Assembly: GCF_964194155.1 (NCBI RefSeq)
Contig: NC_135901.1
Span: forward strand, 17,670,001 to 17,734,000
Length of the DNA: 64,000 bases
Source: Cetorhinus maximus
Taxonomy: Eukaryota
Direction of reading: 5' to 3'
Positions within the stretch are counted from its first letter, which is position 1. Each line of letters opens with the position of its first letter. A program made the translations under genes and the position numbers. Positions 38,846 through 60,100 of the stretch are shown piece by piece. A model generated the notes under the pieces. That model saw only the letters and a list, made by a program, of their open reading frames with translations, was not told where the DNA came from and ran no database searches.

Positions 38846-39024
38846 ACTCAAAGACCGATAATATCCAGGTCCTGATGAATCGAGTGACTGGAGTCAGATC
38901 TTAATATGATCTTTGCTTTGAGTGGCTGTGTGTAAATCCTCCCCTTCCAATTCCCTGTAAAAGGAGTTTCCAAAACCCATCCCTGTCAGTCCAGGATAGA
39001 AATGCACAACATGCTCTCCTCCTG

Positions 39025-39450
39025 CTGACAGGGATGACCGCGCATGCGCCCTGCTGCACATTAACCCCGCTCAAGATGGCGGCCGTTAACCCGGGCCTTT
39101 TGCTGGAGACGCGATCCCGCAGCCTTCGCCCCACAGATAGTTTCTTATTTTGGGTTCAGAGCCGCATCGAGTGCTTACGAACGTTCCCCGTCCACCCACC
39201 GGCTCTATTTCTCCCTCCACTCCGCCCTTTATCTTACCTCCTGTGGATCCGACAAACAAGCCTCCATCCACCGCCATTACCCGCACTGCGCACGCTCCAG
39301 ATCACAATGTCTGGTGGATTGACGGAAAATCTGGACCAATAGGAAGAAGGGACGGAGCTGGAGGTCCGATCGTGAGCGTGTGATCGTCCAACCAATCGGA
39401 GTGAATGAGGGGCGGGGCTGAATCCGGATGTCCCTCATTGGCTGAAACTC
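39025..39450 (-). promoter_or_regulatory. CpG-island promoter, probably of the ZNF gene at 33165-34304
   Basis: cgcgcatgcgc near 39040, aagatggcggc near 39073, two CCAAT boxes and ggggcgggg at about 39335-39420. Confidence 0.65.
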
Positions 39451-39674: not shown

Positions 39675-39750
39675 GGTGTCAGCTGTGGCTCAGTTCATAG
39701 CACCCTCGCCTTTGAATCAGAGGGTTGTGGGTTCACGTCCCACTCCTGGA
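39675..39750 (+). mobile_element. tRNA-derived SINE head
   Basis: A-box tggctcagt and B-box-like gggttcacgtccc; related sequence on - at about 59385-59465. Confidence 0.55.
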
Positions 39751-39802
39751 AAAACCAAGAACTGTGATTGTACTCGAAAGAAGTTGGTCTAGGACAGGTT
39801 CA

Positions 39803-39870
39803 GCCTCTTGGCTAAGATCAAGTGTAGTATCTGTTCTTATCTCGGCCTCTTGGCTAAGATCAAGTGTAGT
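39803..39870 (+). pseudogene. RNU2: Two tandem U2 snRNA 5' fragments (U2 nt 12-50, then nt 7-37) forming the leader of Tx1 copy 1
   Basis: gcctcttggctaagatcaagtgtagtatctgttcttatc followed by (tc)tcggcctcttggctaagatcaagtgtagt versus U2 ATCGCTTCTCGGCCTTTTGGCTAAGATCAAGTGTAGTATCTGTTCTTATC; one T>C change in each piece. Confidence 0.93.
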
Positions 39871-39887
39871 GTTGCAGGGGCGACACC

Positions 39888-41450
39888 ATGGTCCTGCCAT
39901 GGCAAGGTCGGGATGGAAGGGCGAAAACCAATCGCAATCCGAATTCATACCGTGGGTTACCTATCACCGTCCGAGTCACGGTGAACCACAGCGACGAAGG
40001 AGGATCACCTATGGATCGGGGCTTCTTCACCAGGAGGATCCTGTTGAAGGCGTGCGGCTTCCAAGCTACGGAGATCTTCACCCTGCACGACTCCCGCAAA
40101 GGTGGTTATTTTGACGTGACGTTCAAGCAAGTGGCAGACTGCGTCCGGCTCCTGAGGGTGTTCGAGGAGAAGAGAGACCTGCCGGAGATGAAGATCCTGA
40201 CGGCGGAGCCGCACTTTTCTCTGCCGTTGCAACGGGAACGTGAGGTGATGGTGCATGTGTACAACCCCTTCGTCCCTGTCGCCGATGTGGTCACCTTCCT
40301 CACCAGGTACTTCGATAAGGTGGGGAGCGGCACTGAGATTCGAGACGACTTGGGGATCTGGACAGGCAAACGCCTGTTTAAGGTCACGCTAAAGACCGAT
40401 GGTAAGGGAGCCATTTTCCACCCTCCTTCCAGTTTCGCTATCGGGGGAAACCGTGGCTACCTGGTCTACGCTGGGCAACCCAAGCATTGTCGCTCATGCG
40501 GCAAGGCTGGTCATGTGGCGGCCAACTGCAGCGCCTCCCTCTGCAAGATCTGCAAACAGGAAGGGCACCAGACAAAAGACTGCAAACAGGCCAAGTGCTG
40601 CAACCTGTGTGGCGAGGCAAGTCACCTCTACAGGACCTGCCCCAAACGCTGCCGTACTTACGCACAGGCAGCCAAAGCCGACCACGGGGAAGCAGAAGAA
40701 ATGTTCCGTGTCACTCCAACCACCAAGGCCCCCAGGGAGCTCAACGGGACAAAGGAGGACACAGAGAGAGACAAGGTGGAGAAAGAGATTGAGGCAACAG
40801 AGAGCCAATCAACAGCACTACCCCCTGAACCTTCCAGTCCTCAGGACAGCGAATCAATGGAGGAGGAGGCAGCAGTGGAAAAGCAGCAGGGGGAGTGGCG
40901 GACGGTGAAGAACAAGAAAAGTAAGAGGGAGCGAAGAAGAAGCAAAGGCGTTTCCCAGAGAAGCGGCAAGAGGCGTCTCCCATCCGACACGGATGACAAG
41001 GGCAGCAGCTCTTCAGATGAGGAAGTGCCAGAGCGGCACCGACAGAAGAGGCGGCAAAGCTCCAGGGCGTTGGAGGACGAGACACCCGAGCTCCAGAAAA
41101 TTGGAGACAACAAGGAGACCAGCGCACCCCAACTTGGCCTGCAACCTGAGGAGGCCAGTGCACCACAGCCCCTGGAATCTGGGAGCAGTGAGGCAATCAT
41201 CGCACCCCAGCTCCAGGAAGCCGGGAACAGCAACCCCCCAGAGGGGGTGAGTTTTGGAGAAGCTTCTCCAGCAAAGGTCATCTCAAAATCCGCTCACTAC
41301 GTGAACCTCCAGATGCCACTGGAGCAGAACACGGCCAAGGAGATCTACCTCAGCCCATCCAAAGTGAAGGAATTTGAGCTCACTACGGGTATGAAGGAGC
41401 AGACTAAAGGTCTGGGACTCTCAGAGACAGTGGGTTTGGTAGGAGAATAA
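39888..41450 (+). CDS. Tx1 ORF1 (ZCCHC3-like N-terminal RNA-binding region plus three CCHC zinc knuckles)
   Basis: CRSCGKAGHVAANC, CKICKQEGHQTKDC, CNLCGEASHLYRTC; basic and acidic disordered C-terminus; 520 aa. Confidence 0.9.
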   Translation: MVLPWQGRDGRAKTNRNPNSYRGLPITVRVTVNHSDEGGSPMDRGFFTRRILLKACGFQATEIFTLHDSRKGGYFDVTFKQVADCVRLLRVFEEKRDLPEMKILTAEPHFSLPLQREREVMVHVYNPFVPVADVVTFLTRYFDKVGSGTEIRDDLGIWTGKRLFKVTLKTDGKGAIFHPPSSFAIGGNRGYLVYAGQPKHCRSCGKAGHVAANCSASLCKICKQEGHQTKDCKQAKCCNLCGEASHLYRTCPKRCRTYAQAAKADHGEAEEMFRVTPTTKAPRELNGTKEDTERDKVEKEIEATESQSTALPPEPSSPQDSESMEEEAAVEKQQGEWRTVKNKKSKRERRRSKGVSQRSGKRRLPSDTDDKGSSSSDEEVPERHRQKRRQSSRALEDETPELQKIGDNKETSAPQLGLQPEEASAPQPLESGSSEAIIAPQLQEAGNSNPPEGVSFGEASPAKVISKSAHYVNLQMPLEQNTAKEIYLSPSKVKEFELTTGMKEQTKGLGLSETVGLVGE

Positions 41451-41460
41451 ATGCTTTAAT

Positions 41461-44400
41461 ATGGGTTTAAAGATTGTATCCATAAATGTGCGTAGCATTA
41501 AATCTACTACGCGATGTGTTGCGACCTTGGACTACCTAGCCAAGGTCAAAGCTGACCTGTTGTTTCTGCAGGAGTGTGCGATACCGCACCTCAGCTCCTA
41601 CAGGCAATGGTCACGATGGTGGTCCCACGGGCCATCGATCTGGTCGGGCGGAAACGACTCTCGTTCCTCCGGCCTGGGTATTCTGCTGCGGGGAGGCAAC
41701 TTCACCGTCTCCGAGGTCAAGGAGGTGGTGGGAGGGCGACTCCTGGTAGCAGACGTAATGTACAAGAACGCTCCACTCCGGTTAATAAACGTGTACGGCC
41801 CGGCACAAGGGGCTGAGCGGCTGGAGGTTTTTCAGCAGCTCCCACTGCTGCTGGCGACCTCCAGGCCGGTCATTCTGGGCGGGGACTTCAACTGCATCAT
41901 CGATGCGGCTGGACGATCCAGCAGGGCCGGAAGCAGATTGGACGCTACGTCCAGATCCCTGATGGAAACAGTTAAGGATGCCAAGCTGCACGACGTCTTC
42001 AGCAACCCTGCAGACGGAGCGCAGCGTAGATACACCTGGTCGCGGCCAGACGGGTCCATTCGTTCCAGGATAGACTTCCTGTTTGTGTCCCGTGCATTCA
42101 CAGTCAGATCCACCGACGTCAAGCCGGTGTTCTTCTCTGACCACTGCCTCCTACTGGCGGACTGCCACTTGGAGGAAGACCTGAGGGTGGGCAGGGGGGC
42201 ATGGAAGCTAAATGTGCAACTGCTGACCCCAGAGAACATTGAGGAGCTCAAGAGGGAGTACAAAGGTTGGAGAACCGTGAAACCCCTCTTTGAGTCCCTG
42301 ACACACTGGTGGGAAGTGATCAAGGGAAGCATCAAGAGGTTTTTCATCCGCAAAGGCACCCAGAAAGCTAGAAAGGAACAGAGGGAAATGTCCCGACTCC
42401 AGGAAAAGATGCAGAATCTGCTCCGGCTGCGGTCGATGGGGGTCGATGTCAAGGAGGAGCTCCAAGAGGTGAAGGGCCAGCAAGCCTCGCACTTTGCCTC
42501 GGAGGCCTCCAAGATCATCTTCCGTTCCAGAGTCCGCTCCGTGGAGCAGGATGAGACGTGCTCACGTTTCTTCTTCCAAAAGGTACACAGAGAGCGCTCT
42601 GTGATCAGCAGCCTGAAGGAAGAAGACGGCTCAGTAAAGTCATCACGGTCCGACATTCTGAGGATCAGCAAATCCTTTTATGCCGGTCTGTATGACGTGA
42701 AGCCCACGGACAGCACGGCCTCCCAGTCCTTCCTGTCCTCTATCACGGAGGTCTTAGACCACAGTACGCGGGAGAGCCTAGACAAACCGCTAACTCCTGA
42801 CGAACTGACTAAGGCCCTCGAGTCCTTCGAGAAGAGTAAAACCCCCGGAAGCGACGGCCTGCCGGCGGAGTTGTATTCGGCTCTGTGGGACTTGATCGGC
42901 CCAGACCTGCTAGAAGTGTACGAGAGTATGCTCCTGGCCGGCAGCATGTCAGAATCCATGAGGAAAGGCATCATCACCCTCATCTACAAGCACAAGGGGG
43001 AAAGGGAGGAAATTAGAAATTGGCGACCCATTTCACTGTTGAATGTGGACTATAAGATTCTGTCCAAGGTCATCGCCAACCGGGTCAAATCCGCTCTGGA
43101 ATTGGTGATTCACCCTGACCAGACCTGCTCTGTGCCAGGCAGGAAGATCTCTGACAGCCTGGCGCTGCTCAGGGATACGATTGCCTATGTACAGGACAGG
43201 GGTGTGGATACCTGCCTCATCAGCTTGGATCAGGAGAAGGCCTTTGACAGAATATCGCACACCTACATGGGGGATGTGCTCTCCAAAATGGGCTTTGGGG
43301 AGGGAATTCGAAATTGGATCCAACTGCTCTACACTAACATCAGTAGCGCAGTCTCAATCAATGGGTGGGAAACAGATAGCTTTCCGATTAAATCTGGAGT
43401 CAGGCAGGGCTGTCCTCTCTCGCCTGTCCTTTTCGTGTGCTGCATAGAACCCTTTGCCGAGTCCATCAGGAAGGATCCGGGCATAAGAGGAGTGACGATC
43501 CCAGGCAGTGGAGGCACTCAGGTAAAAGCCTCCCTGTACATGGACGACGTCGCCGTCTTCTGCTCGGATCCGCTGTCGGTGCGCAGACTGATGCACGTCT
43601 GCGACCAGTTCGAACTGGCCTCGGGAGCCAAGGTAAATCGTGGGAAGAGCGAGGCCATGTTCTTTGGGAACTGGGCTGACCGATCCTTTGTCCCCTTCAC
43701 TGTCAGGGCTGACGGCCTGAAGGTGCTGGGGATATGGTTCGGAGGGACCGGGGCATGCGTTAGAAACTGGAAGGAGCGAGTGGCTATGGTGAAAAGGAAA
43801 CTGGGCATGTGGGAGCGACGCTCCCTCTCCATTGCGGGTAAGAACCTGGTCATCAGGTGTGAGGTACTCTCGCTGTTGCTGTACGTGGCGCAGGTCTGGC
43901 CCATTCCACACTCCTGCGCGATGGCGATCACTCGAGCCATCTTCCGCTTTATCTGGAGGTCGAAAATGGATCGTGTCTGCAGGGACGCGATGTACAAGCC
44001 TCTAGATAAAGGGGGAAAAAACGTGCCCAACATCGCCCTCATACTGATGGCCACCTTTGTGTGTGGCTGCATCAAGCGGTGCGTAGACCCTCAGTACGCA
44101 AACACCAAGTGTCACTACGTGCTGAGGTTCTACCTGTCCCCGGTGTTGCGAAGGATGGGTCTGGCCACGCTGCCGCGGAACGCTCCAAGTAGTTGGACCG
44201 CACCGTACCACCTGTCCCTGGTGGAAAAATTTATGCAGAAAAACACCTTTGACCACAAGTCCATCAGGCAGTGGTCAGCACGTAACGTCCTAGAGGCCCT
44301 GAGGGATAAGGAGAGGGTGGACCCTGTGGGATGGTTCCCCGAGCAGACTGTCAAAGTCATTTGGCAGAATGCCTCATCGCCAGAACTTTCCAACAAGCAC

Positions 44401-44868
44401 CAAGACGTAGCTTGGCTGGTGGTGAGAAAGGCCCTCCCCGTCAGATCCTTCCTACACGCCAGGAGTCTCACCCCCTCTGCACGATGCCCTCGAGGTGGCT
44501 GTGGTGGGGAAGAGACCGTTGTTCACCTCCTTGTGGATTGTGCCTTTGCAAAGAAAGTCTGGAGAGAGATGCAGTGGTTGCTGTCGAGGTTCATCCCGAG
44601 CAGTTCTGTGACACAGGACTCTGTGCTCTACGGGCTGTTCCCAGGGACACACACCGAGACAAACATCGACTGCAGCTGGAGGATCATCAACTCGGTGAAA
44701 GACGCGCTTTGGTCTGCCCGAAACTTGTTGGTCTTCCAGCACAAAGAGTTGTCCCCGACCGATTGTTGCGGACTGGCACAATCCAAAGTCCAGGACTACG
44801 TGCTGAGGGACGCACTAAAGCTTGGGGCAGCTGCCGCAAAGGCGCAATGGGGAAGGGTCGCTGTCTAA
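41461..44868 (+). CDS. Tx1 ORF2: APE endonuclease, reverse transcriptase, C-terminal zinc finger
   Basis: SINVRS, LFLQE, GGDFN, SRIDF, FSDH; NWRPISLLN, LDQEKAFD, GVRQGCPLSP, YMDD; CPRGGC...HLLVDC; 1135 aa uninterrupted. Confidence 0.97.
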   Translation: MGLKIVSINVRSIKSTTRCVATLDYLAKVKADLLFLQECAIPHLSSYRQWSRWWSHGPSIWSGGNDSRSSGLGILLRGGNFTVSEVKEVVGGRLLVADVMYKNAPLRLINVYGPAQGAERLEVFQQLPLLLATSRPVILGGDFNCIIDAAGRSSRAGSRLDATSRSLMETVKDAKLHDVFSNPADGAQRRYTWSRPDGSIRSRIDFLFVSRAFTVRSTDVKPVFFSDHCLLLADCHLEEDLRVGRGAWKLNVQLLTPENIEELKREYKGWRTVKPLFESLTHWWEVIKGSIKRFFIRKGTQKARKEQREMSRLQEKMQNLLRLRSMGVDVKEELQEVKGQQASHFASEASKIIFRSRVRSVEQDETCSRFFFQKVHRERSVISSLKEEDGSVKSSRSDILRISKSFYAGLYDVKPTDSTASQSFLSSITEVLDHSTRESLDKPLTPDELTKALESFEKSKTPGSDGLPAELYSALWDLIGPDLLEVYESMLLAGSMSESMRKGIITLIYKHKGEREEIRNWRPISLLNVDYKILSKVIANRVKSALELVIHPDQTCSVPGRKISDSLALLRDTIAYVQDRGVDTCLISLDQEKAFDRISHTYMGDVLSKMGFGEGIRNWIQLLYTNISSAVSINGWETDSFPIKSGVRQGCPLSPVLFVCCIEPFAESIRKDPGIRGVTIPGSGGTQVKASLYMDDVAVFCSDPLSVRRLMHVCDQFELASGAKVNRGKSEAMFFGNWADRSFVPFTVRADGLKVLGIWFGGTGACVRNWKERVAMVKRKLGMWERRSLSIAGKNLVIRCEVLSLLLYVAQVWPIPHSCAMAITRAIFRFIWRSKMDRVCRDAMYKPLDKGGKNVPNIALILMATFVCGCIKRCVDPQYANTKCHYVLRFYLSPVLRRMGLATLPRNAPSSWTAPYHLSLVEKFMQKNTFDHKSIRQWSARNVLEALRDKERVDPVGWFPEQTVKVIWQNASSPELSNKHQDVAWLVVRKALPVRSFLHARSLTPSARCPRGGCGGEETVVHLLVDCAFAKKVWREMQWLLSRFIPSSSVTQDSVLYGLFPGTHTETNIDCSWRIINSVKDALWSARNLLVFQHKELSPTDCCGLAQSKVQDYVLRDALKLGAAAAKAQWGRVAV

Positions 44869-45103
44869 GACCTTTCTACCACAGCGCACCGAGAGACTGG
44901 GAACTGTTTAGAGCCCCTCGGGCTGTACAGATCAAAATGAAAGGCTGTAAATGATTGTAATATTGTTTGTACTGATGCACCTGGTGATACATTTTGTAAA
45001 AGTTTAACCTGGATTGTACCCTTGTAATGTTGTTTTTGAAATGGTTTTGAATGTGATTGAAGATTTTTTATGAATAAAGTATATTTTTACAAAAAAAAAA
45101 AAA

Positions 45104-45116
45104 GGTTCAGGAGAAT
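45104..45116. repeat. Target-site duplication ggttcaggagaat between the two Tx1 copies
   Basis: Same 13-mer at 50371-50383; partial aggttcag at 39796-39803. Confidence 0.9.
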
Positions 45117-45143
45117 CTCGGCCTTTTGGCTAAGATCAAGTGT
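45116..45143 (+). pseudogene. RNU2: U2 snRNA 5' fragment (nt 7-34) forming the leader of Tx1 copy 2
   Basis: tctcggccttttggctaagatcaagtgt is an exact match to canonical U2. Confidence 0.9.
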
Positions 45144-45158
45144 TGCAGGAGCGACACC

Positions 45159-46721
45159 ATGGTCCTGCCATGGCAAGGTCGGGATGGAAGGGCGAAAACC
45201 AATCGCAATCCGAATTCATACCGTGGGTTACCTATCACCGTCCGAGTCACGGTGAACCACAGCGACGAAGGAGGATCACCTATGGATCGGGGCTTCTTCA
45301 CCAGGAGGATCCTGTTGAAGGCGTGCGGCTTCCAAGCTACGGAGATCTTCACCCTGCACGACTCCCGCAAAGGTGGTTATTTTGACGTGACGTTCAAGCG
45401 AGTGGCAGACTGCGTCCGGCTCCTGAGGGTTTTCGAGGAGAAGAGAGACCTGCCGGAGATGAAGATCCTGACGGCGGAGCCGCACTTTTCTCTGCCGTTG
45501 CAACGGGAACGTGAGGTGATGGTGCATGTGTACAACCCCTTCGTCCCTGTCGCCGACGTGGTCACCTTCCTCACCAGGTACTTCGATAAGGTGGGGAGCG
45601 GCACCGAGATTCGAGACGACTTGGGGATCTGGACAGGCAAACGCCTGTTTAAGGTCACGCTAAAGACCGATGGTAAGGGAGCCATTTTCCACCCTCCCTC
45701 CAGTTTCGCTATCGGGGGAAACCGGGGCTACCTGGTCTACGCTGGGCAACCCAAGCATTGTCGCTCATGCGGCAAGGCTGGTCATGTGGCGGCCAACTGC
45801 AGCGCCTCCCTCTGCAAGATCTGCAAACAGGAAGGGCACCAGACAAAAGACTGCAAACAGGCCAAGTGCTGCAACCTGTGTGGCGAGGCAAGTCACCTCT
45901 ACAGGACCTGCCCCAAACGCTGCCGTACTTACGCACAGGCAGCCAAAGCCGACCACGGGGAAGCAGAAGAAATGTTCCGTGTCACTCCAACCACCAAGGC
46001 CCCCAGGGAGCTCAACGGGACAAAGGAGGACACAGAGAGAGACAAGGTGGAGAAAGAGATTGAGGCAACAGAGAGCCAATCAACAGCACTACCCCCTGAA
46101 CCTTCCAGTCCTCAGGACAGCGAATCAATGGAGGAGGAGGCAGCAGTGGAAAAGCAGCAGGGGGAGTGGCGGACGGTGAAGAACAAGAAAAGTAAGAGGG
46201 AGCGAAGAAGAAGCAAAGGCGTTTCCCAGAGAAGCGGCAAGAGGCGTCTCCCATCCGACACGGATGACAAGGGCAGCAGCTCTTCGGATGATGAAGTGCC
46301 AGAGCGGCACCGACAGAAGAGGCGGCAAAGCTCCAGGGCGTTGGAGGACGAGACACCCGAGCTCCAGAAAATTGGAGACAACAAGGAGCCCAGCGCACCC
46401 CAACTTTGCCCGCAACCTGAGGAGGCCAGTGCACCACAGCCCCTGGAATCTGGGAGCAGTGAGGCAATCATCGCACCCCAGCTCCAGGAAGCCGGGAACA
46501 GCAACCCCCCAGAGGGGGTGAGTTTTGGAGAAGCTTCTCCAGCAAAGGTCATCTCAAAATCCGCTCACTACGTGAACCTCCAGATGCCACTGGAGCAGAA
46601 CACGGCCAAGGAGATCTACCTCAGCCCATCCAAAGTGAAGGAATTTGAGCTCACTACGGGTATGAAGGAGCAGACTAAAGGTCTGGGACTCTCAGAGACA
46701 GTGGGTTTGGTAGGAGAATAA
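45159..46721 (+). CDS. Tx1 ORF1, copy 2
   Basis: ATG at 45159 gives 520 aa; about 5 aa differ from copy 1. Confidence 0.9.
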   Translation: MVLPWQGRDGRAKTNRNPNSYRGLPITVRVTVNHSDEGGSPMDRGFFTRRILLKACGFQATEIFTLHDSRKGGYFDVTFKRVADCVRLLRVFEEKRDLPEMKILTAEPHFSLPLQREREVMVHVYNPFVPVADVVTFLTRYFDKVGSGTEIRDDLGIWTGKRLFKVTLKTDGKGAIFHPPSSFAIGGNRGYLVYAGQPKHCRSCGKAGHVAANCSASLCKICKQEGHQTKDCKQAKCCNLCGEASHLYRTCPKRCRTYAQAAKADHGEAEEMFRVTPTTKAPRELNGTKEDTERDKVEKEIEATESQSTALPPEPSSPQDSESMEEEAAVEKQQGEWRTVKNKKSKRERRRSKGVSQRSGKRRLPSDTDDKGSSSSDDEVPERHRQKRRQSSRALEDETPELQKIGDNKEPSAPQLCPQPEEASAPQPLESGSSEAIIAPQLQEAGNSNPPEGVSFGEASPAKVISKSAHYVNLQMPLEQNTAKEIYLSPSKVKEFELTTGMKEQTKGLGLSETVGLVGE

Positions 46722-46731
46722 ATGCTTTAAT

Positions 46732-49700
46732 ATGGGTTTAAAGATTGTATCCATAAATGTGCGTAGCATTAAATCTACTACGCGATGTGTTGCGACCTTG
46801 GACTACCTAGCCAAGGTCAAAGCTGACCTGTTGTTTCTGCAGGAGTGTGCGATACCGCACCTCAGCTCTTACAGGCAATGGTCACGATGGTGGTCCCACG
46901 GGCCATCGATCTGGTCGGGCGGAAACGACTCTCGTTCCTCCGGCCTGGGTATTCTGCTGCGGGGAGGCAACTTCACCGTCTCCGAGGTCAAGGAGGTGGT
47001 GGGCGGGCGACTCCTGGTAGCAGACGTAATGTACAAGAATGCTCCACTCCGGTTAATTAACGTGTACGGCCCGGCACAAGGGGCTGAGCGGCTGGAGGTT
47101 TTTCAGCAGCTCCCACTGCTGCTGGCGACCTCCAGGCCGGTCATTCTGGGCGGGGACTTCAACTGCATCATCGATGCGGCTGGACGTTCCGGCAGGGCCG
47201 GAAGCAGATTGGACGCTACGTCCAGATCCCTGATGGAAACAGTTAAGGATGCCAAGCTGCACGACGTCTTCAGCAACCCTGCAGACGGAGCGCAGCGTAG
47301 ATACACCTGGTCGCGGCCAGACGGGTCCATTCGTTCCAGGATAGACTTCCTGTTTGTGTCCCGTGCATTCACAGTCAGATCCACCGAGGTCAAGCCGGTG
47401 TTCTTCTCTGACCACTGCCTCCTACTGGCGGACTGCCACTTGGAGGAAGACCTGAGGGTGGGCAGGGGGGCATGGAAGCTAAATGTGCAACTGCTGACCC
47501 CAGAGAACATTGAGGAGCTCAAGAGGGATTACAAAGGTTGGAGAACCGTGAAACCCCTCTTTGAGTCCCTGACACACTGGTGGGAAGTGATCAAGGGAAG
47601 CATCAAGAGGTTTTTCATCCTCAAAGGCACCCAGAAAGCTAGAAAGGAACAGAGGGAAATGTCCCGACTCCAGGAAAAGATGCAGAATCTGCTCCGGCTG
47701 CAGTCGATGGGGGTCGATGTCAAGGAGGAGCTCCAAGAGGTGAAGGGCCAGCAAGCCTCGCACTTTGCCTCGGAGGCCTCCAAGATCATCTTCCGTTCCA
47801 GAGTCCGCTCCGTGGAGCAGGATGAGACGTGCTCACGTTTCTTCTTCCAAAAGGTACACAGAGAGCGCTCTGTGATCAGCAGCCTGAAGGAAGAAGACGG
47901 CTCAGTAAAGTCATCACGGTCCGACATTCTGAGGATCAGCAAATCCTTTTATGCCGGACTGTATGACGTGAAGCCCACGGACAGCACGGCCTCCCAGTCC
48001 TTCCTGTCCTCTATCACGGAGGTCCTAGACCACAGTACGCAGGAGAGCCTAGACAAACCGCTAACTCCTGACGAACTGACTAAGGCCCTCGAGTCCTTCG
48101 AGAAGAGTAAAAGCCCCGGAAGCGACGGCCTGCCGGCGGAGTTGTATTCGGCTCTGTGGGACTTGATCGGCCCAGACCTGCTAGAAGTGTACGAGAGTAT
48201 GCTCCTGGCCGGCAGCATGTCAGAATCCATGAGGAAAGGCATCATCACCCTCATCTACAAGCACAAGGGGGAAAGGGAGGAAATTAGAAATTGGCGACCC
48301 ATTTCACTGTTGAATATGGACTATAAGATTCTGTCCAAGGTCATCGCCAACCGGGTCAAATCCGCTCTGGAATTGGTGATTCACCCTGACCAGACCTGCT
48401 CTGTGCCAGGCAGGAAGATCTCTGACAGCCTGGCGCTGCTCAGGGATACGATTGCCTATGTACAGGACAGGGGTGTGGATACCTGCCTCATCAGCTTGGA
48501 TCAGGAGAAGGCCTTTGACAGAATATCGCACACCTACATGGGGGATGTGCTCTCCAAAATGGGCTTTGGGGAGGGAATTCGAAATTGGATCCAACTGCTC
48601 TACACTAACATCAGTAGCGCAGTCTCAATCAATGGGTGGGAAACAGATAGCTTTCCGATTAAATCTGGAGTCAGGCAGGGCTGCCCTCTCTCGCCTGTCC
48701 TTTTTGTGTGCTGCATAGAACCCTTTGCCGAGTCCATCAGGAAGGATCCGGGCATAAGAGGAGTGACGATCCCAGGCAGTGGAGGCACTCAGGTAAAAGC
48801 CTCCCTGTACATGGACGACGTCGCCGTCTTCTGCTCGGATCCGCTGTCGGTGCGCAGACTGATGCACGTCTGCGACCAGTTCGAACTGGCCTCGGGAGCC
48901 AAGGTAAATCGTGGGAAGAGCGAGGCCATGTTCTTTGGGAACTGGGCTGACCGATCCTTTGTCCCCTTCACTGTCAGGGCTGACGGCCTGAAGGTGCTGG
49001 GGATATGGTTCGGAGGGACCGGGGCATGCGTTAGAAACTGGAAGGAGCGAGTGGCTATGGTGAAAAGGAAACTGGGCATGTGGGAGCGACGCTCCCTCTC
49101 CATTGCGGGTAAGAACCTGGTCATCGGGTGTGAGGTACTCTCGCTGTTGCTGTACGTGGCGCAGGTCTGGCCCATTCCACACTCCTGCGCGATGGCGATC
49201 ACTCGAGCCATCTTCCGCTTTATCTGGAGGTCGAAAATGGATCGTGTCTGCAGGGACGCGATGTACAAGCCTCTAGATAAAGGGGGAAAAAACGTGCCCA
49301 ACATCGCCCTCATACTGATGGCCACCTTTGTGTGTGGCTGCATCAAGCGGTGCGTAGACCCTCAGTACGCAAACACCAAGTGTCACTACGTGCTGAGGTT
49401 CTACCTGTCCCCGGTGTTGCGAAGGATGGGTCTGGCCACGCTGCCGCGGAACGCTCCAAGTAGTTGGACCGTGCCGTACCACCTGTCCCTGGTGGAAAAA
49501 TTTATGCAGAAAAACACCTTTGACCACAAGTCCATCAGGCAGTGGTCAGCACGTAACGTCCTAGAGGCCCTGAGGGATAAGGAGAGGGTGGACCCTGTGG
49601 GATGGTTCCCCGAGCAGACTGTCAAAGTCATTTGGCAGAATGCCTCATCGCCAGAACTTTCCAACAAGCACCAAGACGTAGCTTGGCTGGTGGTGAGAAA

Positions 49701-50139
49701 GGCCCTCCCCGTCAGATCCTTCCTACACGCCAGGAGTCTCACCCCCTCTGCACGTTGCCCTCGAGGTGGCTGTGGTGGGGAAGAGACCGTTGTTCACCTC
49801 CTTGTGGATTGTGCCTTTGCAAAGAAAGTCTGGAGAGAGATGCAGTGGTTGCTGTCGAGGTTCATCCCGAGCAGTTCTGTGACACAGGACTCTGTGCTCT
49901 ACGGGCTGTTCCCAGGGACACACACCGAGACAAACATCGACTGCAGCTGGAGGATCATCAACTCGGTGAAAGACGCGCTTTGGTCTGCCCGAAACTTGTT
50001 GGTCTTCCAGCACAAAGAGTTGTCCCCGACCGATTGTTGCGGACTGGCACAATCCAAAGTCCAGGACTACGTGCTGAGGGACGCACTAAAGCTTGGGGCA
50101 GCTGCCGCAAAGGCGCAATGGGGAAGGGTCGCTGTCTAA
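46732..50139 (+). CDS. Tx1 ORF2, copy 2
   Basis: 1135 aa, intact; about 10 aa differ from copy 1. Confidence 0.97.
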   Translation: MGLKIVSINVRSIKSTTRCVATLDYLAKVKADLLFLQECAIPHLSSYRQWSRWWSHGPSIWSGGNDSRSSGLGILLRGGNFTVSEVKEVVGGRLLVADVMYKNAPLRLINVYGPAQGAERLEVFQQLPLLLATSRPVILGGDFNCIIDAAGRSGRAGSRLDATSRSLMETVKDAKLHDVFSNPADGAQRRYTWSRPDGSIRSRIDFLFVSRAFTVRSTEVKPVFFSDHCLLLADCHLEEDLRVGRGAWKLNVQLLTPENIEELKRDYKGWRTVKPLFESLTHWWEVIKGSIKRFFILKGTQKARKEQREMSRLQEKMQNLLRLQSMGVDVKEELQEVKGQQASHFASEASKIIFRSRVRSVEQDETCSRFFFQKVHRERSVISSLKEEDGSVKSSRSDILRISKSFYAGLYDVKPTDSTASQSFLSSITEVLDHSTQESLDKPLTPDELTKALESFEKSKSPGSDGLPAELYSALWDLIGPDLLEVYESMLLAGSMSESMRKGIITLIYKHKGEREEIRNWRPISLLNMDYKILSKVIANRVKSALELVIHPDQTCSVPGRKISDSLALLRDTIAYVQDRGVDTCLISLDQEKAFDRISHTYMGDVLSKMGFGEGIRNWIQLLYTNISSAVSINGWETDSFPIKSGVRQGCPLSPVLFVCCIEPFAESIRKDPGIRGVTIPGSGGTQVKASLYMDDVAVFCSDPLSVRRLMHVCDQFELASGAKVNRGKSEAMFFGNWADRSFVPFTVRADGLKVLGIWFGGTGACVRNWKERVAMVKRKLGMWERRSLSIAGKNLVIGCEVLSLLLYVAQVWPIPHSCAMAITRAIFRFIWRSKMDRVCRDAMYKPLDKGGKNVPNIALILMATFVCGCIKRCVDPQYANTKCHYVLRFYLSPVLRRMGLATLPRNAPSSWTVPYHLSLVEKFMQKNTFDHKSIRQWSARNVLEALRDKERVDPVGWFPEQTVKVIWQNASSPELSNKHQDVAWLVVRKALPVRSFLHARSLTPSARCPRGGCGGEETVVHLLVDCAFAKKVWREMQWLLSRFIPSSSVTQDSVLYGLFPGTHTETNIDCSWRIINSVKDALWSARNLLVFQHKELSPTDCCGLAQSKVQDYVLRDALKLGAAAAKAQWGRVAV

Positions 50140-50399
50140 GACCTTTCTACCACAGCGCACCGAGAGACTGGGAACTGTTTAGAGCCCCTCGGGCTGTACA
50201 GATCAAAAGGAAAGGCTGTAAATGATTGTAATATTGTTTGTACTGATGCACCTGGTGATACATTTTGTAAAAGTTTAACCTGGATTGTACCCTTGTAATG
50301 TTGTTTTTGAAATGGTTTTGAATGTGATTGAAGATTTTTTATGAATAAAGTATATTTTTACAAAAAAAAAGGTTCAGGAGAATGTCATAATTCAGAATA

Positions 50400-50505
50400 A
50401 CACAGACTCTGAAGAAGAGTCAACGGACTCGAAACATTAACTCTGTCTTTCTTTCCGCAGATGCTGTCAGACCTGCTGTATTTTTCCAGAATTTTTTGTT
50501 TTTCT
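50400..50505 (+). mobile_element. Short Penelope-derived repeat with hammerhead-like core
   Basis: CTGAAGA-a-gagtc-aacg-gactc-GAAAC at 50409-50435, then the gatgctgtcagacctgctg tail. Confidence 0.6.
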
Positions 50506-51239
50506 TACAGACTACAAAGGAACAGCTGATCTCAAAGATAATCTTTTGCAGTATGCGTGGAGGGGATCAGCTGAATCAGGTTTAAAGGGGTGAAATGATA
50601 TTTTTTCTAGATTGGACAATCACATTAAAATCTGCAACTCAGACGGGACCATGGATTATTGCAGATTTCCATCGGTGCATTATTCCAGGAAGCCTTAAAA
50701 TCATACGGACAGTATTTCAGAACCAGGGTTCCAACTACACGGGGGCAACGGGCAATTTCACCCCAGAAAAGCCCGCAAAAAATCAATCACAGGGACAGCC
50801 ACTATAAGAACAACCTTTGTCGGAGGCAGAATCTGTGAGCAGGAGCTCATCCAGTCGCAATGCAGAATCCCAACTGCTGGGGTGCTGGGTAATTGTGAGT
50901 GGAAAATATATTTTTTGTGATTACTTTGTGGTTATGGGATTGAAACTTTGACCATAGACCAATCAATAAAGATCAGAACCAAATGATAAAGAAAGACCAA
51001 TGCACGGAACTTCCATTATACAGCAGAAGGAAGGGGAATGGGCATTTGTGAAGAATTTACAGCAAGTTAGTTGAACATGACTTGCCCTTAACACGTTTGA
51101 GCTGGCTTGAGATATGTTTAAATCACTTCAAGAAATGGAACATGGCAGAGCACCCATTTACTAGGATTTACGTGTGATTTTTCTTTTTATTTGTTCACGA
51201 TTGGGTAGCAGAAAATTGTTTTCGTTCTCTGTTTTGTGT

Positions 51240-51680
51240 TTCAATGGCACCGCCGATACCCACAATCTCCTGCGTGTGTGAAAGTGCCCTAGTCACTGTA
51301 CAGGAGCCCAACGCGCAGGCGCAATGCTGATGATACCTGGAGCATGCGCAGTGTCAGTTTGCTCAGAGCCCTGGGAGTGCGGGAGACGCGAGTGAGAGTC
51401 GCTGAGGCGGAGGGAGGAGCGGAGCCGGGAGCCGGGAGCCGGGGTGGGACCATTGATTATTGCAATTTCATCCAGAAACACCCGGTTAGGCCGCAATCCC
51501 GGATCACAGCCTCCATGACCCGTGTTTGCAGCTCCGGGGTTTCTTCCCGGTGACAGAGCCGGGTTCAGGGGAAGAGGCTCCGGAGCGGGAGATTCAGAAA
51601 CTGCGGGGAGATCGCGGGCCGCCCGGGGGCTCAGAAACTGGTGGGACGGACTCAGGGTCCGGGTAAGACCCACCTGGGAG
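51240..51680 (+). promoter_or_regulatory. CpG-island promoter and first exon of the ZNF locus at 52 kb
   Basis: gcgcaggcgca and ggagcatgcgcag (NRF1-like); donor-like gg|gtaaga near 51662; paralog of 14100-14230. Confidence 0.65.
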
Positions 51681-52357
51681 GGTCCCCCCTCCTGTGTCCC
51701 TCCCGGCGGCAGCTGGGATCCCGCCTGAGACCCTGAATCAGAGACACAGGAGCTGGAGAACTGAACCCAGGCAGAGGAGAGGGAGGGAGAAAACTGGGAG
51801 TGGAGGAAAGAAATGCTGGAGATGGTGAGATGGGCTTGGATTTCAGCCCAGGGAGGAGGGAGAGTGTGTGGGACGGGGATTTACAGCTTTGGGGGAACAA
51901 GAGAAAAAAGGATGTTCCATAGAAACTAGAATTGTCTGTTCAGAATTTCTGTCCTGGATTTAAAGTGATGACTTTTGTAAACTCGTTTTACAGGGTATGA
52001 AACGGAGGTGACTGGCAGACAGAAAACGCAAAGCAAACATCACATCAAGATCTGTCAGAGGCACTGAATTCATCAGGACCTGAGTATCATCAACTTTTGA
52101 ATGTGGAAGGAGAAATATTTGTCTATTCTGTCTTTGGGAAAGGATTTCAAACATCGGTGTGACTGGAAAAGCCTCAACACACACACACACCCGAGTGAGA
52201 GTGTTCCAGTGAATTGACTTTGGAAAAAACTTTAAGCAGTTACATAGTCTGCAAAAATATCGCACCATTCACAGTGGGGAGAAACTGTTCACGTGTTGTG
52301 TGTGGACAAGGCTTCAACTAATCGTCCAACCTGGAGAGAGACAAGGACCCCCACACC

Positions 52358-53521
52358 ATGGAGAAACCATGGAAATGTATGGACTGTGGGAAGGGATTCA
52401 ATTTCCCATCCCAACTGGAAGTTCATCGGCGCAGTCATACTGGGGAGAGACCATTCACCTGCTTTATCTGTGGGAAGGGATTCACCCATTTGTACAACCT
52501 TCGGACACACCAGCGAGTTCACACTGAGGAGAGGCCGTTCACCTGCCCTGTGTGTGGGAAGGACTTCACTCGGTCATCCCACATTGTGACACACCAACTT
52601 GTTCACACTGATAAGAGACCATTTACATGTCCTGACTGTGAGAAGAGTTTTAAATGCAGAAAAGATCTGCTGATACATCAACGTATTCACACTGGGGAGA
52701 GGCCGTTCACCTGCTCCGTGTGTGGGAAGGGATTCATTCAGTCATCCCACCTTCTGACACATCAACTTGTTCACTCTGATAACAAATTTTTTAATTGTTC
52801 TGACTGTGACAAGAGCTTTAAAAGCAAAAAGGATCTGCTAACACATCAATATACTCACACTGGAGAGAGGCCATTCACCTGTACCAACTGTGGGAAGGGA
52901 TTCAGCCGTCCGTCTGCCCTATTGAATCACCAGCGAACTCACACTGGGGAGAGGCCGTTCACCTGCTCTGACTGTGGGAAGGGATTCATTAATTGATCCA
53001 ACCTTCTAATACACCAGCAACTTCACACAGGGGATAGACTGTTCACCTGCTCTGACTGTGGGAAGGGATTCACCCGTTCATCTAACCTTCTGACACATCA
53101 GCAGGTTCACACTGAGGAGAGACCATTCACTTGCTCTGTGTGTGGGAAGGGATTCACTCGGTCATCCAACCTATTGAATCACCAGCGAGTACACACTGGA
53201 GAGAGGCCGTTCACCTGCTCTGTGTGTGGGAAGGGATTCACTCAGTTATCTAACCTGCTGACACACCAGAGCATTCACAGTGAGGAGAGGCCATTTACCT
53301 GCTCTGTGTGTGGGAAGAGATTTTCTCATTCATCCTATCTGCTGAAACACCAGCGAGTTCACAGTGGGGCGAGGCCGTTCACCTGTAATGCCTGCGGAAA
53401 GGCATTCACTCAGTCATCACACCTGCGAACACACCAGTGGGTTCACAAGCGACTGCAAGGTTTGGATTCTACTCCTGTTGATGCTGTTAATCATACCAGG
53501 ACTGAACCATGTTCATTCTGA
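52358..53521 (+). pseudogene. C2H2 zinc-finger gene (13 fingers) with one in-frame nonsense codon in finger 8
   Basis: ORFs 52358-52996 and 53138-53521 share a frame; a single TGA at 52994-52996 separates them; could encode a 7-finger product. Confidence 0.8.
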
Positions 53522-57125: not shown

Positions 57126-60100
57126 CACTTAACCTCTCTCCTCTCTCTGTCAGACACTAAGTCACTTAATCTCTGTTTCAGAGAGCGCCTAAACTCACTT
57201 AGGTTCTTTCTCAGAGAGAGAGAAAAAACTTAACACACTTAACCTCACTTAGCCTCTCTTCTCTGTCTGAGGCAGTGCTCAATGTACAGAGAGTCATTCC
57301 CCTCTCTCTCTGTTTCTCTCTCTCACTCTCAGACAGGCCTCGATTCACTTTAACTCTCCTATTTTTTGATAACTGTTTTTGGGCAAAATTATTTATTTTA
57401 TATAATTTCCCCTTATTTCTCCAAAGCATAACCATCTGCTTGTTTCTCCCTTCAGTGAATATGTTTAAACCCCAAATAAGCTCATCTGTTTAAATCTTTA
57501 AATTGGGAATGGAGGTGAATGCAATGCTGAGACTGGCAGCAATCTGTGTGGTTGTTCTTGATGCTGTCAGAGTGAGTTCACCCTCACAGGCAGGAAGACT
57601 GTTCTCGGAGATAACATGAAACTGACACCTGCTGTTTCATTCTCAGGAAACACAACTTCCGGTTTCTCTGCTGCTGGTTCCTAACCACACATCTCACTTC
57701 TGAGCAGAAAATAAATCCAGGGGCTACAGTCGGGTGAGAACATCTGTCAAGGCGGCCTATATCTGGCCACAGAGTCAGGGCAGAGTCACACAGATCACAT
57801 TGCGGTGACATTTACAAATAAGCCTGTTGTTTCTGTTCAGAGTCTCCATTCCCGGACATATGTGGCTGTATCTGTGGATCAGTCACTGAGTTCCCTCTGC
57901 TCTCCATAGCCAGGAACTGATAGCCTGCTCCTTTCCATTTTATATCATTCTCTCATATCATTCTGTATTCCTTGCTTCCTCTATTTCTCAGCTTTATCTC
58001 TCACCACCTCATCTTTCTGTTTTTCTAAGTGTCTCAGTTTTTCTCTCAGTTTTTGTCTCTCCTTTCCTCTATATCTCTCTCGATGTCAGTGTGTTCCTGT
58101 TTAATTTAGATGTTCAATATCATGAAGGGTTTTTGATTGATTAAAGAAGGAAAAATGGTGAAAGGCAGAAAATGCTGGAAGCATTTGGTCTGGCAGCATC
58201 TGTGGACAGAGAAACAGATTTAAGGTTTCCAGTCCGACATCACTCTTCTTTTGAGCAGGAAAAACAGGGGTTGTCCTTCTTAGATCAGAAAAGTTCAGGG
58301 GGAAATTTAATGGAGGTGTTCAAAATGAGGAAGGATTTGTGATAGTGTCGATAGGGAGAAACTGTTTCCAGGAGCAGGGGGGTTTGTAACCAGAGGACTC
58401 AGAGATTTAAGATATTTGACAATAGAACCAGAGGGAGTGATAAAGAGAACATTTTTATGCAGTGATTTGATGTGACCTGGAATGCACATACTGACAGGGG
58501 GTTGGAAGCAGATATAATAGCTACTTTCAAAGTGAATTGGATCAGTACTTGAAGAGGGAATAATTGGCAGAGTTATAGTGAATGGGACTAATTGGACGGT
58601 TCACTCATCTTTGTGACATTCTGAATTTTCCTCTCCTGAGGTTTTAACATTTGATCTTTTCAATCATAATGTGTCTCAAACAGAAGATTTAAAACATTAG
58701 TTTCTACGAGCTGTCAGATCTGTTTCCTGTGTGTCTGTGTAACTCGGGAACTGCAGGCAAGGGTGAGAAGGAACCGATTCTTTTCAGTTCCTCTAACAGG
58801 TGCACCGTCACTTCAGATACCAGAAATCTCTCGAGTTCCCCATGTCGTCATTGCCCTCCCCTTGGGTATAACAGCTCTCAGTCAGGTGGAGTCAGTCACA
58901 CGTGTCTCTGTCATGACATTTCCACTCCTATTTTATCACACACCTCCCTGTGACACTCACAATAACACAGACACCCAAATATCATTGCTTCCTTACACCT
59001 TGTCCTCCTATTACAATCGAATCTTTACTCGGCCTCTTGTCTCCCTTAATGTAAGATTACCTGTAGTTAAAGCCACCTCTGTTATTAAGAACTGGAATTG
59101 GCCTTTGTGATTATTTTTACACCAGACGCTAGTTGGCCTCGCGTGCTGCAGTCATAACTCCCTTCACAAACCCAAAGAGGAAGAGGTTGTTTTTTAATGA
59201 GTGGGTGGACACCTCAAACCTGCAATCATGTCCCAGAAATCTCTGCCTTGCTGGATGGAGCAACTGCCCAGGATTGTCCCGTCTGTCATTCCCTTCACTC
59301 CTTCTGAGTCTAAGAAAATATCCAGCAAAAGAACAGAGACTCCCATTTATAATGACACCAGGCGCATCAGCTTAGATGATGTGGTTGGGTCTCTGGAGAG
59401 GGCTTGAACCCACATCCTTCTGACTCGGGGTGAGTGCGCCACCAAGTAGTCAATGTTGACGTCAGTTCATATTCCACTAGACCATGTCTGTGTTATTACA
59501 TTCAACCCCATCCCATTCACATTGCATTGATCCTTGGCTCTGTTATTAGGGATTACATTGGCAACACATTGATATCATATTATATCAATAGACCATGACT
59601 GACTCACACTGCTATATGAGACCTAATCTTTGGTTTTGGTGCACTAGATACTGATTGTATTATCATCACTTTGGATCCAATGATGAATTCACTAACACAC
59701 TGCAACCTGACTCTTATTATTGGAACAAACACTGTATTTGTTACACTCAAAGTGAGCCAAACCTTTGCTGTTCTTCCTTCGGGCCCCATCTGCACTCTTA
59801 CTGTATCAGACCCTGTGTGTTATTGTTACACTTATACTCTGCAACTGTTATTATTAAAAAATAACCTGCCTTTTATTTCAGTTCTGGTGTCCGACTTTAT
59901 TATTATCATTGGAAACATTTTTCCTGCCAGTTTTCAACTGGAACTTGTTTCTGGTATTTGATTGTCACATTTCCATGTTTTTAACTTTATTATTTAGTCT
60001 ATATGTGAATTTCCTCATGTAAGTCACACTGTAATTCAGCCTTTGGTCTGAAAATTCGTTTCTTGAGTAAAATACCGTTATTATAGCTCACAGTATAGGA

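Follow-up and report, generated by a model that had tools for sequence, protein, structure and literature searches.

Two head-to-tail copies of one 5.2-kb non-LTR retrotransposon occupy 39.8-50.4 kb of the 64-kb stretch of Cetorhinus maximus DNA analyzed here ("the window"), which is a cluster of C2H2 zinc-finger genes, and they very probably arose by two integrations of different source lineages at a single nick. The initial annotation had proposed two independent insertions at the same nick rather than a tandem duplication, and this proposal is supported by the junctions, by the signature of purifying selection between the copies, by the residues of the gene models P0318 and P0324, and by the 5' head of another gene model, P0316. 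There are no N characters in the window and no gap at the dimer.

Structure of the two copies

Both copies lie on the plus strand and start with pieces of U2 snRNA, whose positions we numbered by hand against a U2 gene. Copy 1 opens with an extra 5' U2 fragment of ~38 nt (39804..39841; U2 nt 12/13 to 50), which reaches 13 nt beyond the published Keno insertion point and overlaps by 2 nt the copy's own head, encoded together with a 17-nt leader at 39840..39887 (U2 nt 7/8 to 37); both fragments carry C at nt 16. It continues with ORF1 (520 aa, 39888..41450), which contains two ZCCHC3-type RNA-binding domains and zinc knuckles, with ORF2 (1135 aa, 41461..44868), which contains an APE endonuclease, a reverse transcriptase (RT) with the YMDD motif and a zinc-binding C-terminus and is free of stops and frameshifts, and with a 3' UTR (44869..45103) that includes AATAAA and an A13 tail. 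Copy 2 has a short head with leader (45117..45158; U2 nt 8 to 34, with the canonical T at nt 16), ORF1 (520 aa, 45159..46721), an intact ORF2 (1135 aa, 46732..50139) and a 3' UTR (50140..50370) with AATAAA and an A9 tail.

The Pfam matches comprise the first and second RBD_ZCCHC3 domains, Exo_endo_phos, RVT_1 and zf-RVT, with zf-CCHC slightly below the cut-off. The endonuclease aligns with solved L1 endonucleases (E 3e-8), and its hairpin loop is similar to the loop in the structure entry 2v0r, which we take to be a Tx1L loop graft. Thus, the element has the architecture of the L1/Tx1-type non-LTR retrotransposons, with zinc knuckles in ORF1 and the APE, RT and zinc-binding C-terminus in ORF2, and, as in these elements, a poly(A) tail after AATAAA and a target site duplication are both present. 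The region of ORF1 that matches both Pfam RNA-binding domains named for ZCCHC3 spans 39888-40670 in copy 1 and 45159-45940 in copy 2. Human ZCCHC3 is reportedly a repressor of L1, and an origin of this protein from an ORF1 of such a kind would fit the Pfam matches.

Junctions and genomic context

The initial annotation described the order target, copy 1, A13, target, copy 2, A9, target, and every feature of this layout is present in the sequence. The 13-mer GGTTCAGGAGAAT occurs exactly twice in the 64 kb, at 45104 and 50371, directly 3' of the A-runs of 13 and 9, so that both poly(A) tails stop at the identical target base. The best reading is a target duplication of 14 nt, AGGTTCAGGAGAAT, whose first A would merge with the poly(A) tail. 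Its central instance (45103..45116, plus strand), which shares the first A with the tail of copy 1 and the last T with U2 nt 7, forms the spacer between the copies, which is therefore the locus's own duplicated target; the right instance (50370..50383, plus strand) runs on into the right flank, and on the left the first 8 letters of the motif are found (39796-39803, plus strand), the last of them common to U2 nt 12. Accordingly, at each 5' junction the outermost base fits the target and U2 equally well, as a 1-nt microhomology. A relaxed search for GGTTCAGGAGAAT with up to 2 mismatches returned 13 matches, 2 of them exact (shuffled mean 2.8); we considered the surplus of 2-mismatch matches as a sign of further target sites and rejected it. 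No second match to the sequence around the nick occurs within the window, which thus reveals no repeat target comparable to Mariner-N4.

The dimer lies in a spacer of ~1.2 kb between two head-to-head CpG-island promoters, and the nick lies ~400 and 820 nt from the two islands, which head divergent zinc-finger genes. On the left, the island and first exon (39000..39445, minus strand; CpG o/e 0.93-0.97) are accompanied by CCAAT, GC-box and NRF1-like motifs and a minus-strand donor motif at 39233, and presumably belong to the leftward gene with 11 zinc fingers encoded on the minus strand at 33.0-34.5 kb. On the right, the promoter and first exon (51200..51750, plus strand; o/e 0.64-0.79, donor motif at 51661) precede a plus-strand array of 13 zinc fingers (52.2-53.5 kb). 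This latter array is broken by an in-frame stop (52994-52996), at which the ORF 52358-52996 ends, and the fingers go on to ~53440. Two repeat-like sequences adjoin the dimer. An interspersed repeat at 50408-50510, starting ~40 nt right of the nick, has 8 alignments of at least 58 nt elsewhere in the window, two of them inverted around 14818, and at 39685-39750, ~50 nt left of the nick, there is a tRNA-like SINE-head sequence, recognized by eye, with a weak match at 59395-59426.

Two probable source lineages

The differences between the copies that had been listed initially, i.e. leader length, U2 variant, leader junction and poly(A) length, are all confirmed, and the estimate of about 15 amino acids turns out to be exactly 15 (5 in ORF1 and 10 in ORF2). 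The 5203-nt bodies differ by 33 evenly spread substitutions (0.63%) and no indels. The heads and leaders differ by the extra ~38-nt U2 fragment of copy 1, by T/C at U2 position 16, by 5 nt at the head-leader junction and by one substitution in the leader. Of the 32 differences in coding sequence, 17 are synonymous, compared with 9.0 expected on average under a neutral model that matches the CpG, transition and transversion classes (P=0.002), and dN/dS between the copies is 0.27-0.35. The copies are therefore separated by purifying selection, and neutral divergence is rejected at P=0.002.

Near-identical relatives (97-100%) are found among C. maximus gene models on five scaffolds of differing length. 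P0318 and P0324 have the copy 1 state at 3 of the 4 covered diagnostic sites of ORF1 and the copy 2 state at one. As a Heterodontus outgroup agrees with copy 2 at positions 411, 417 and 418, T411 and L418 of copy 1 are derived states, and they are also found elsewhere. P0318 and P0324 possibly represent a single locus that entered the assembly twice, and both may descend from an earlier state of copy 1. P0316, a more diverged and older copy on another scaffold, carries U2 nt 2-34 in frame into the leader, which corresponds to the short head of copy 2 (match score 48, against a background maximum of 39 among 423 proteins), as well as the R81 of copy 2. P0325 agrees with copy 2 at all 4 sites, but as the two may be the same copy, we did not take it as independent support. 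These four (P0316, P0318, P0324 and P0325) are automatic gene models and were compared as proteins only. The models of P0318 and P0324 do not stop where ORF1 ends but go on with 10 residues from the middle of ORF1, which suggests a second same-strand copy of the family downstream at that locus, possibly another tandem.

Formation of the dimer

We propose that the dimer was formed by two target-primed reverse transcription events, in which the RNAs, of two lineages within a single young Tx1-type LINE family of sharks, would have been primed at the same bottom-strand nick. By duplicating its target, the first insertion would have restored the site, at whose nick the second RNA could then prime, with the 5' ends resolved at +14 in one event and at +8 in the other, each with 1-nt microhomology. 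The U2 piece is a head of the family. The extra U2 fragment of copy 1 may date either from the history of that lineage or from the integration itself, and may stem from a template switch or from co-transcription with a U2 gene. Either order of insertion yields exactly the present sequence; it is somewhat more likely that copy 2 came first and copy 1 second, into the upstream duplicate, by analogy with R1, whose new copies enter the upstream duplicate (PMC2718515, in the excerpt available). Two insertions in rapid succession in one cell would be indistinguishable from this scenario.

Among the other explanations, the one that survives best, although we regard it as quite unlikely, is that each haplotype carried a different insertion at this nick and that the two alleles became a tandem through unequal crossover within the 14-nt duplication or were merged in the assembly. 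Such a join fits the sequence equally well. However, the joint shares only 14 nt, no duplication of the flanks of the dimer was detected within the window, there is no assembly gap, and the 33 evenly spread differences should have allowed long reads to phase the copies. Moreover, were this improbable join real, two independent insertions would still be required and only the tandem would be secondary or false. Hence, neither a haplotype join nor an unequal crossover, the outcomes named initially as refuting the claim, would undo it, as they would still need two alleles with different 5' junctions at one nick.

Local duplication of a single insertion by unequal crossover, followed by divergence in place, with one copy later remodelled or altered by gene conversion, is very improbable. 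Crossover at the target duplication also gives head-to-tail copies with the duplication between them, and conversion from other family members could bring in variants of another lineage. Nonetheless, under this scenario the 5' junctions should be identical and the duplication should be the same in all three places, whereas four junction features differ; it is at odds with the rejection of neutral divergence (P=0.002); and features of each copy occur at other loci. Finally, a single integration, by a jump of the RT between two RNAs or by retrotransposition of a ready-made dimer, is hardly credible even though template jumping has been invoked for the 5' extensions of SINEU (in the accessible part of PMC4494074) and the double head of copy 1 indicates template switches in the family, since the spacer is the locus's own target, and such a sequence would come neither from a jump between RNAs nor from a dimer made elsewhere.

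Twenty sequencing runs were also considered; 16 contain part of the stretch and 4 contain at least half of it (share up to 0.74, one sample), and they were not used as evidence.

Probable reuse of one nick

The two independent insertions had been taken to imply either sequence-specific recognition of a non-U2 target or a strong hotspot. The non-U2 site stands, while strict specificity is not required. Without any preference, 6e-5 same-site pairs would be expected (for 1000 copies in a 4-Gb genome, both values assumed). With a 6-mer preference at the frequency observed in the window (40 in 128,000 positions), the expectation rises to ~0.2 same-site pairs per genome, an estimate that depends on ~1000 recent copies and on assumed genome size and copy number. 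Reuse of the nick thus does not call for a long recognition site and is best ascribed to a short preference of the endonuclease just downstream of it (AGGTTC-like), in the probably accessible spacer between the two CpG-island promoters. The ~1.2-kb spacer probably represents accessible chromatin, and the proximity of the nick to two CpG islands suggests that accessibility is a real co-factor; the 6-mer preference and open promoter chromatin could together explain the reuse.

The motif hints at an AGGTTC preference conserved from sharks to crocodilians, as judged from one site compared post hoc with one published motif. U2 itself carries GTTC at nt 42-45, at another distance from the Keno nick. 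A search with the 3'-end pattern for further junctions gave 0 matches in metagenome contigs and 0 in viral contigs, and the best segments of the related loci (80 metagenome and 4 viral) are 25-47% identical, too distant to inform on the target of the shark family. U2 is found in 1 of these 84 loci, as an intact gene.

In 3 of the same 84 loci, a U1 snRNA abuts distant L1/Tx1-like elements 3' of ORF2 (L001:6094-6146, L078:2622-2674 and L066:3783-3939). L001 and L078 adjoin the 5' end of U1, L001 with the intact U2 gene upstream, and in L066 the U1 sequence follows an A14 run and is joined at about its nt 20. On the basis of these arrangements, the three elements are possible U1-targeting LINEs. 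For U1, only Dada-U1 is listed in the available portion of PMC4640811 (2015), and our literature search for other U1-targeting LINEs found nothing further.

Family affiliation

Relatives in other sharks and in rays are ~60-85% identical. Searches with the full-length ORF2 protein gave matches of at most 51% identity, none of them named Keno, and a search of representative proteins returned shark fragments. In the RT tree (72 rows), a group of 4 shark sequences (SH-aLRT 100) is sister to a mainly amphibian group (99); this tree was calculated with a quick search only, after 4 rows had been dropped for short RT coverage, and it includes no verified Keno, Tx1 or Tx1-Mar reference. The sole Tx1 label among the RT relatives is an automatic name of a Danio protein (P0029, 39% identity). 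The relatives in Pleurodeles (NDU88_007924-007953 and 005298-005304) and in Siphateles (LOC143713526, -527 and -529) have adjacent locus tags, which suggests clustered or stacked copies in both genera.

Neither a shark Tx1 family with a U2 head nor the target of the dimer is described in the literature that we searched; as Repbase and most subscription papers were outside this search, this is weak evidence of novelty.

A tentative dual-target reading

It is tempting, albeit doubtful, to consider the family as a living dual-target escapee from Keno that borrows promoters and inserts both in U2 genes at nt 37/38 and in non-U2 sites with a GTTC core. Since the 5' UTR is only ~45 nt long, an outside promoter is probably needed. 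The extra fragment of copy 1 runs to U2 nt 50, past the copy's own head, which points to a U2-like gene or RNA with C16 as the template. If the family had both targets, transcription from a U2 promoter of a source copy inserted at nt 37/38 with a 13-nt duplication (nt 38-50) would give the head of copy 1; this duplication would be the counterpart of the 14-nt one at the shark locus, and the shared C16 would mark the host U2 gene. The GTTC core, which lies close to the nick on its downstream side (at U2 nt 42-45; AGGTTC in the shark and in the crocodilian Mariner-N4), would then have been kept from sharks to crocodilians. A template jump onto U2 RNA at the 2-nt microhomology, as proposed for the extensions of SINEU-2 (available text of PMC4494074), would give the head of copy 1 as well. 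If the dual-target reading is true, rebuilt targets let copies stack, and the P0318 and P0324 models hint at more stacks.

The transcription of snRNA-headed retroelements and the sequences recognized by their Tx1-type drivers were left open in the part of Kojima 2015 (PMC4494074) that was accessible, and these drivers have decayed in crocodilians. A pair of intact copies that hardly differ, with open reading frames and a defined target, opens both questions to experiment. In addition, a dimer placed between two zinc-finger promoters could change how these genes are regulated, or its own transcription could start from them.

Comparison with known systems

According to the excerpts of PMC4640811 and PMC6136364, Keno elements are Tx1 LINEs specific for U2 genes, with the insertion point at U2 nt 37. 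The shark element resembles them in being APE-type and U2-associated, and the own head of copy 1 ends at nt 37. On the other hand, the head extends only to nt 34 in copy 2 and in P0316, and both copies reside in a non-U2 site. We considered Keno as the identity of the element at this locus and rejected it, as neither of the two copies is in a U2 gene or has U2 nt 38 onward as its 3' flank.

The crocodilian Tx1-Mar elements are Tx1-type and cluster with Keno, and some of them have U1 or U2 heads (Tx1-11_Crp: U2); snRNA-headed elements of crocodilians are described as having repeatedly added snRNA pieces at the 5' end with short homologies, and tandems of SINEU-3, mobilised by Tx1-Mar, sandwich a duplication and were read as sequential insertion (all from the available text of PMC4494074). 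The U2 head of both shark copies and of P0316 parallels the U1/U2-derived heads of some Tx1-Mar families, and the duplication expected for SINEU-3 starts with AGGTTC, the same first six letters as that of the shark (PMC4494074, same excerpt). However, the crocodilian copies are 85-87% identical to their consensus while the shark pair is intact and 0.63% apart, and the crocodilian target is the Mariner-N4 transposon, whereas the shark site is not repeated in the window (PMC4494074, as available). Thus, double insertion around a target duplication is already known, also for snRNA-headed elements mobilised by Tx1 LINEs, on the same partial text of PMC4494074. By itself it is expected for a site-preferring LINE, and the shark locus is of value because its copies are young and intact and its site is defined.

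Titles cited by PMC4859970, of which a part was available, refer to human retrotransposons that reused one site. Double insertion yields dimers of transposable elements in Drosophila, including P elements (10.1101/158386, in excerpt), and in tandems of the Drosophila R1 element the copies are separated by a 14-bp target duplication (PMC2718515, in excerpt). As far as these excerpts describe them, the Drosophila dimers and R1 tandems share with the shark dimer the head-to-tail arrangement, the target duplication in between, and distinct 5' ends that mark independent events; the shark junction has the locus's own duplication and distinct 5' ends, as is typical of dimers formed by double insertion. 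The difference from R1, on the same excerpts, is that the latter uses the multicopy rDNA target, whereas the dimer described here was formed by a vertebrate Tx1-type LINE at an apparently single-copy site.
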